From a virus (Duplodnaviria; Heunggongvirae; Uroviricota; Caudoviricetes): a stretch of DNA of 40,101 nucleotides. Positions 25,146-25,406 of this stretch are shown one piece after another; position 1 is the first letter of the stretch, and each line of letters starts with the position of its first letter. The stretch is taken from positions 1-40,101 of the IMG/VR virus record IMGVR_UViG_2718217868_000001, one strand, 5' to 3'. The position numbers were made by a program, and so were the translations under genes. Under the pieces are notes generated by a model. It was not told the origin of the DNA, made no database searches, and saw nothing but the letters and a program-made list of their open reading frames with translations.

Positions 25146-25406
25146 ATGACACACATGATCTTTCGTCATGGCGACATGAAGAAGTGGAAAGGCGTTGGAT
25201 ACGACTTTGAAATCGTGAAAGCCGAAGAGCTTCAGGAATATCTGGATGCTGGCTGGTTTGCACATCCCGATGACCTTCTGAAGGATGTTGCAGAGCCAGA
25301 GCCAGAGCCAGAGCCAGAGCCAGAGCCAGAGCCAGAAGAAAAACAGCGTAAAAAGCCTGGTCGAAAACCTAAGGCGGCAGCAGATGAACCTGACAACGAA
25401 GGGTGA
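25146..25406 (+). CDS. Small protein (86 aa) with a (Glu-Pro)7 repeat and a basic KKPGRKPK tail
   Basis: GGAGA site then ATG at 25146, between the coat terminator and gp4; contains seven tandem GAGCCA hexamers; its end overlaps the gp4 start. Confidence 0.5.
25293..25334 (+). repeat. Perfect tandem hexanucleotide repeat (GAGCCA)x7
   Basis: 42 bp of exact GAGCCA units, read directly from the sequence. Confidence 0.95.

Follow-up and report, generated by a model that had tools for sequence, protein, structure and literature searches.

The coat/gene 4 junction of a P22-like (Lederbergvirus-type) prophage of Escherichia coli was analysed in a window of 40,101 nt (IMG/VR virus record IMGVR_UViG_2718217868_000001, positions 1 to 40,101), and the small open reading frame (ORF) of 86 codons located at this junction (25146..25406, plus strand) is a typical representative of an established gene family, with a notable in-frame microsatellite, (GAGCCA)7. 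P22-like phages share a conserved and dispensable accessory gene, and the ORF is most probably the allele of this gene in the E. coli lineage; in it, replication slippage varies the length of a disordered spacer between a folded N-terminal module (N-module) and a basic tail. The original prediction had taken the ORF for an insertion, on the assumption that no gene intervenes between the coat gene and gene 4 in P22. That premise is corrected here: the P22 record BK000583 annotates orf69 in this very slot, and in BLASTP the orf69 product aligned with that of the window ORF over both N-module and basic tail (35 % identity, E 3e-9). The two are thus homologues, and nothing has been inserted here by comparison with P22.

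The ORF product matched phrog_1175 (‘unknown function’) over residues 1–84 (E 7e-37), and its first 51 residues also matched phrog_3769; in PHROG, phrog_1175 corresponds to a short form of the protein and phrog_3769 to a long form. With an E. coli long form, BLASTP aligned the N-module (E 2e-6) and the tail (E 8e-10). In BK000583, the coat stem-loop is directly followed by orf69 (6135..6344), which has 17 nt in common with gene 4, and the slot between the coat terminator and gene 4 is likewise filled by gene 6 of phage ε34 (186 aa), gene 6 of Sf6 (61 aa), and hkbT of HK620, with the stop of the small gene overlapping the gene 4 start by 26 nt in Sf6 and HK620. Each of these genes has a strong Shine-Dalgarno (SD) sequence, found in the equivalent place in P22 (GGAG), Sf6 (AAGGA) and ε34 (GAGGTG). 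Homologues of 51–65 % identity in other genera were found in the gene order portal, scaffold, coat, small ORF, gp4, gp10, one of them, in Klebsiella, ending 17 nt before gp4 with no overlap. Homologous proteins were detected in Escherichia, Salmonella, Shigella, Klebsiella, Yersinia and other genera, and the locus was found in 217 of 5426 complete E. coli genomes. The repeat thus sits in an ORF that is conserved across genera in the same synteny, and sequence similarity, slot, and the combination of N-module and tail around a variable middle all place the window ORF in the family.

In the genome paper of ε34, the gene 6 homologues are described as markedly different in length, and the P22 version as seemingly internally deleted; the gene is non-essential in P22, the only phage for which this is reported (PMC2629481, citing Eppler et al. 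1991). The corresponding orf186 is labelled ‘function unknown’ in the paper on phage L (PMC8022706). A literature search on P22 orf69 returned nothing relevant, and gene 6 is not mentioned in the Sf6 evolution paper.

The ORF starts with ATG at 25146 and ends with TGA at 25404..25406, and an SD sequence, GGAG, was read at 25136..25139 with a 6-nt spacer to the start codon. The N-module (residues 1–49, 25146..25292), delimited by AlphaFold2 (AF2) modelling and homologue alignment, comprises a β-hairpin, an α-helix and a G-W-x-x-H-P motif. It is followed by the acidic, proline-rich linker (EP)7 (residues 50–63), encoded by (GAGCCA)7 at 25293..25334, and by the AT-hook-like basic motif R-K-K-P-G-R-K-P-K (residues 68–76, 25347..25373), of which the form K-x-G-R/P-K-P-K is kept in P22, ε34 and other genera. 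Tandem Repeats Finder scored the GAGCCA array as the best in the window (7.7 copies, 100 % match, score 92), and since 40 kb of random sequence would be expected to hold only about 8e-18 perfect hexamer arrays of 42 nt, the array is not a chance event.

Upstream, the P22-type coat (major capsid) gene covers 23806..25101 (plus strand; PF11651 P22_CoatProtein, E 2.8e-166), as also annotated by the Prokaryotic Genome Annotation Pipeline (PGAP) in the identical prophage of E. coli H6. The terminator scan placed a terminator-like hairpin behind it at 25107..25134 on the same strand, with a G+C-rich 9-bp stem, a 4-nt loop and a T-run (RNA fold −18.2 kcal/mol, z −3.25); equivalent coat stem-loops are annotated in P22, Sf6 and HK620. 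Downstream, the gene for gp4, the head-tail adaptor involved in head completion, covers 25384..25884 (plus strand; PF11650 from residue 2, E 1.1e-58; phrog_637) and shares 23 nt (25384..25406) with the 3′-end of the small ORF. The ribosome-binding site of its own behind the coat terminator, the overlap with the gp4 start, and the seven exact GAGCCA units followed by a basic KKPGRKPK tail had all been noticed in the original prediction, and each was confirmed in the sequence. A stretch of 351 nt around the small ORF was 100 % identical to the chromosomes of E. coli H6 and H5, and in H6 the prophage adjoins intS and a tRNA-Arg gene. In PGAP/RefSeq, the ORF product is named ‘hypothetical protein’ (WP_024180326.1).

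The small ORF is a real coding sequence. Codons 1–49 were compared across seven alleles that are distinct at the DNA level, drawn from related phages and prophages; 7 of the 10 variable sites fell on codon position 3, and the changes left eight variable codons synonymous-only and two amino-acid-changing. When the same stretch was read in either other frame, the ratio was reversed, with one synonymous-only codon against eight amino-acid-changing ones.

Two AF2 models were computed from independent alignments, of 17 sequences for the short form and 39 for the long form. In both, the N-module was modelled as a β-hairpin, a helix and a G-W-x-x-H-P turn with predicted local distance difference test (pLDDT) values of 81–89, when the linker and tail remained of low confidence (pLDDT below 50 in the short form, ca. 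50 in the long form). Within this module of about 48 aa, residues G9, G16, G36, W37, H40 and P41 were invariant across homologues of 22–71 % identity. The long form is present in E. coli prophages and consists of the N-module, a short spacer, a WDGH domain (PF25311), the residues ‘AIA’, (EP)1–5, and a near-identical tail beginning with EEKQRKKP(G/D). Altogether 39 long forms were collected from many enterobacterial genera, with an EP-rich linker of very variable length before the basic motif. The WDGH domain was recognised in ε34 gp6 (E 1.7e-40) and in the E. coli long-form alleles, and gave no Pfam match at E ≤ 1 in the window ORF. N-module and tail are therefore the constant parts and the middle is the variable one, as the latter spans from seven residues in P22 to a domain of about 100 residues. 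In one divergent family member, P0234, a (TG)5 dipeptide repeat stands in place of (EP)7.

Scans of the ORF product, P22 orf69 and the long form against Pfam, NCBIfam and PADLOC gave no functional family, the WDGH domain being the one hit in the long form. The Pfam matches to Trypan_PARP and SPESP1 were rejected as compositional (Trypan_PARP 18.4 bits against a cut-off of 100), and the name ‘dihydrolipoamide acetyltransferase’ carried by some matches was discarded, as it reflects linker composition only. Sequence searches of the PDB with the N-module profile and with ε34 gp6 returned nothing credible, a Foldseek comparison with BFVD yielded no more than other WDGH proteins and small phage proteins without a name, and a literature search on the WDGH domain found no paper. 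The arrangement of N-module, optional WDGH domain, EP-type spacer and AT-hook-like tail is thus the first domain-level description that we found for this widespread phage gene.

Pure GAGCCA arrays in related phages and E. coli prophages ranged from 1 to 33 copies, and every inspected allele was in frame. Two copies were counted in phage CurroJimenez_Bas106, five in phage HZ41, five plus one GAGCAA in phage Dewey, seven in the window and in E. coli TO6, eight in phages IME10 and APC_JM3.2, and 13, 24, 29 and 33 in E. coli chromosomes, and three E. coli WDGH long-form alleles had one, four and five; the array of phage Louie was broken by GAGTCA units. Among the 91 full-length E. coli matches listed, the range was likewise 1–33 units, with six (20 matches) and seven (17 matches) as the commonest numbers. 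Total protein length was 75–98 aa among the best matches, and the middle region of the protein clusters kept an acidic-X dipeptide period (EP, DP, ES, EQ, ET). Match lengths that were not multiples of six had raised the possibility of frameshifted alleles, which was rejected, as the T-run of the terminator differed by a single T and the ORFs were intact. A single-unit locus was matched in NZ_CP081778.1 of E. coli 0H24 (39,448 bp; match 23810..24124), one of two matches classed as plasmid-borne in the genome collection; judged by its size, the record may be a complete P22-like phage genome that was assembled into a circle.

The 29- and 33-copy alleles had no mismatches in 1509 flanking nt, and the change in copy number is therefore younger than any point substitution there. 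That slippage would alter the linker length and keep the frame, as originally proposed, is strongly supported by the 1–33 in-frame units and by these identical flanks, and repeat copy number does differ between related prophages. The array had been marked before, as a repeat_region in the GenBank record of APC_JM3.2; a literature search on hexanucleotide repeats in prophages gave nothing on the coat/gp4 locus, and no paper on the polymorphism was found. Repeats of 6 bp are used in multiple-locus variable-number tandem-repeat analysis, including one in a Salmonella prophage, and the microsatellite is a potential typing marker for P22-like prophages.

The preferred account runs as follows. The gene always lies between the coat terminator and gene 4, and its product combines a small folded N-module, a disordered acidic, proline-rich spacer, and a basic C-terminal motif, K-K-P-G-R-K-P-K. 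Replication slippage would add or remove whole GAGCCA units, so that the frame is never lost and spacer length alone changes. The protein tolerates such change, since alleles carry 1 to 33 units, the P22 spacer has seven residues, and relatives accommodate a WDGH insert of about 100 aa, and we infer that the variation in spacer length is mostly neutral. Two observations weigh against this account. Near-clonal pairs (H1/H5/H6, two E. coli W assemblies, and AHM8C212RI/AHM8C160RI) shared their copy number, which means that the mutation rate is not extreme and that, at the scale covered by strain resequencing, the locus does not behave as hypermutable. Moreover, pure arrays of up to 33 units and an EP-type linker kept across genera could reflect selection.

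Selection is the core of an alternative in which the EP array would be a contingency-type sequence selected for rapid length change of a stiff, polyproline-II-like spacer. Spacer length would then set the reach from the N-module to the tail, or the extent to which the acidic tract masks the basic tail, and activity would be tuned between hosts. The strikingly pure arrays even at 24–33 copies, the coexistence of many allele sizes, the differing copy numbers between identical flanks, and the persistence of an EP-rich linker before the basic tail across genera, in short and long forms, are all consistent with such tuning. On the other hand, a 6-nt unit offers no on/off switching, P22 manages with a non-repeat spacer of seven residues, the spread of allele sizes is continuous, with no discrete optima beyond the common six- and seven-unit alleles, near-clonal isolates have the same copy number, and the gene is dispensable in P22. 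Adaptive tuning is judged unlikely, and mostly neutral slippage is preferred. The in-frame alleles of 1–33 copies form a natural series for testing whether spacer length matters.

With regard to function, the AT-hook-like tail and a strand-helix-GW motif that the N-module has in common with modules repeated in tandem in the parts of GIY-YIG and HNH homing endonucleases that bind DNA hint, tentatively, at a protein that may bind nucleic acid, either DNA or RNA, although the odds are rather against it. An exhaustive phmmer search of 1.8 billion representatives with the N-module returned small phage proteins together with homing-endonuclease-like proteins of the GIY-YIG, HNH and NUMOD3 types. The latter matched at E 5e-7 to 1e-3, with an hhalign probability of 95.9 % for their modules, and carry 4–6 tandem copies of ‘(K/R)xWINNGxxxKxIxxxELQxYLDDGWxxGR’. 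Across 224 family clusters, the tail read P-G-R-K-P in 124, [KR]-G-R-K-[PSA] in eight, and the canonical R-G-R-P in three, which were the divergent members P0133, P0222 and P0234 with the motif at the tail position (core KKRGRPAK in P0234). Several points count against nucleic-acid binding: the window tail is itself of the P-G-R-K-P and not the R-G-R-P type, at E ≤ 1 the window ORF had no match to Pfam AT_hook (PF02178), D, V or S stands in place of the key glycine of the tail in several close alleles, and the hhalign match to the endonuclease modules covers only 21 of 38–49 columns, in a comparison set that was picked via the matches of the query itself.

Elsewhere, the WDGH domain is fused to a Tad2-like (anti-Thoeris) domain and to a crAss001_48-related domain, and by domain association these fusions hint that the cargo may have an accessory function or one in counter-defence, the window allele being without WDGH. 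Taken further, N-module and AT-hook-like tail might form a conserved ‘carrier’, anchored to DNA of phage or host, with a freely variable spacer and a slot for cargo such as WDGH. The family would then provide a modular accessory platform that is expressed late, acts in counter-defence or in association with DNA, and is possibly loaded together with the genome; in it, the EP microsatellite would be an evolvable tether and the window form a cargo-less or minimal version. We hold this for an improbable extension of the dispensable accessory gene outlined above; if true, a DNA-tethered accessory or counter-defence factor would be a new module in a very well studied phage group.

The overlap with gene 4 invites another explanation, in which translation of the ORF would deliver ribosomes to the overlapping gp4 start and the peptide would be incidental. 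Small ORF and gp4 start overlap by 23 nt in the window, by 17 nt in P22, and by 26 nt in Sf6 and HK620, and a gene that is non-essential and very variable in length would fit a leader of this kind. However, protein-level purifying selection acts on the N-module, residues are invariant across homologues of 22–71 % identity, the N-module folds confidently in AF2, relatives keep an entire WDGH domain in frame, the Klebsiella homologue stops 17 nt short of gp4, and RNA structure around the gp4 start was in no way special (z +0.68). Because of the selection on the protein, the folded domain, and the non-overlapping Klebsiella homologue, a pure coupling role is very unlikely; coupling may nevertheless be a secondary effect.

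Position directly 3′ of the coat gene would also suit a protein of the virion surface, with the N-module bound to the capsid and the EP rod projecting the basic tail as a fibre or whisker of variable length. Some phages encode decoration proteins right after the coat gene, and in TonB and procyclins EP repeats adopt the shape of extended rods. Yet the coat terminator implies expression far below that of the coat protein, and no similarity to known decoration proteins was found. Moreover, no band was assigned to the 20-kDa gp6 in sodium dodecyl sulfate gels of ε34 virions, which were nearly identical to those of P22 except for gp13, the tailspike, and a Dec-like band of ca. 15 kDa assigned to gene 71 (PMC2629481). 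A stoichiometric virion component is hence unlikely, and a decorating whisker has but a slight chance of being correct.

Finally, the proposal that the repeat belongs to gp4, starting at an ATG at 25285 with an N-terminal (SQ)7 extension and leaving the 86-codon ORF spurious, can be set aside almost entirely: the frame is open for 34 codons upstream of the ATG at 25384 and the early start is used in three GenBank records (IME10, Dewey, Louie), but the array is stop-free in all six frames and openness thus automatic, P22 has a stop one codon upstream of its gene 4 ATG so that the longer (SQ)n start is not conserved, the Pfam and PHROG profiles of gp4 begin at residue 1–2 of the short form, PHROG gave no match for the extension, and upstream of the array most substitutions are silent in the ORF frame and change the amino acid in the other two frames, one of them that of gp4.

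The stop-free repeat opens spurious frames, and annotators consequently disagree at this locus, with gp4 extended in some records and long alleles called pseudogenes in others. The (SQ)n-extended gp4 of the window (25285..25884, plus strand) was rejected as an artefact, on the grounds of the P22 stop, the short-form profiles, and the lack of a family for the extension. Two antisense ORFs, of 218 aa with (WL)n (24897..25553, minus strand) and of 71 aa with (GS)n (25232..25447, minus strand), gave no family matches and were likewise discarded; they are open because the GAGCCA array contains no stop in any of the six frames. The records of IME10 (NC_019501), Dewey and Louie leave out the real small gene and let gp4 begin at the artefactual early start. 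PGAP flagged the intact 29-copy allele of E. coli ECONIH6 (locus L008, NZ_CP026199, 647..1039) as an incomplete pseudogene, and cut short the starts of two WDGH long-form alleles (L017 and L018; NZ_CP195467 and NZ_CP023142) despite a frame open from the N-module ATG.

A few other features of the prophage and its relatives were recorded. Short tandem repeats at 10379..10434 of the window (a 14–16-nt unit in 2.6 copies, and TACCCCCT in two copies) lie inside the replication-protein gene, which was assigned by correspondence with locus L009 (4859..5680), and probably represent iterons of the origin, such as occur within lambdoid O genes. A degenerate GCTTCT array of 14 copies with 63 % match (5824..5907) was identified in the early-left region, within a gene for a hypothetical protein on the minus strand, where it encodes an Ala/Glu/Lys-rich low-complexity segment. 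The tail needle gene (27302..28150) is of the 282-aa type and is named ‘tail needle knob protein’ by PGAP in E. coli H6; as it stands beside P22-type coat and scaffold genes, the late region looks mosaic. In phages Dewey (L002) and Louie (L004), a minus-strand HNH endonuclease gene was located immediately 5′ of the coat gene (locus positions 1..195), and in the E. coli prophage L019 an HNH endonuclease interrupts gp10.

In comparison with known systems, the tail resembles the AT-hook (PF02178) as a short basic Gly-Arg-Pro/Lys motif in a disordered region, but lacks the canonical core and the Pfam match, and its glycine is replaced in some natural alleles. The ‘WINNG…ELQxYLDDGW’ modules of the GIY-YIG, HNH and NUMOD3 proteins have a strand-helix-GW motif in common with the N-module, whereas the window protein has the motif only once, with a hairpin loop of greater length, and is devoid of a nuclease domain; the ‘ELQxYLDDGW’ module itself is uncharacterised and without a Pfam family. 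Glu-Pro runs, expected to form an extended, non-globular spacer, are found in the (Glu-Pro)n-(Lys-Pro)m spacer of TonB and in the EP procyclins of trypanosomes as well as in the window protein, and a Lys/Pro-rich basic segment after the Glu-Pro run is part of the same likeness. There is no homology, nor any Pfam match to TonB, and the window protein is cytoplasmic and phage-encoded, with no membrane or periplasmic context.

As in coding variable-number tandem repeats and simple-sequence contingency loci, a perfect short tandem repeat lies in frame within a coding region, and sequences that are otherwise identical differ in copy number, a pattern compatible with slipped-strand mispairing. Phase-variable loci of that type switch genes on and off, whereas a GAGCCA unit is a multiple of three: with 6 nt per unit and every inspected allele in frame, there is no such switching. 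The locus is also in a phage late gene instead of the surface-antigen or restriction-modification genes typical of contingency loci.

The closest counterparts are P22 orf69, ε34 gene 6 (the same as orf186 of ST64T and phage L, and ORF54 of ST104), Sf6 gene 6 and HK620 hkbT, which occupy the same slot as the window ORF, each gene having its own SD sequence and a stop that usually overlaps the gene 4 start. They have in common with it the G-W-x-x-H-P N-module and a K-x-G-R/P-K-P-K tail, and differ in the middle part, which is seven non-repeat residues in P22, the WDGH domain in ε34, and pure (GAGCCA)7 in the window.
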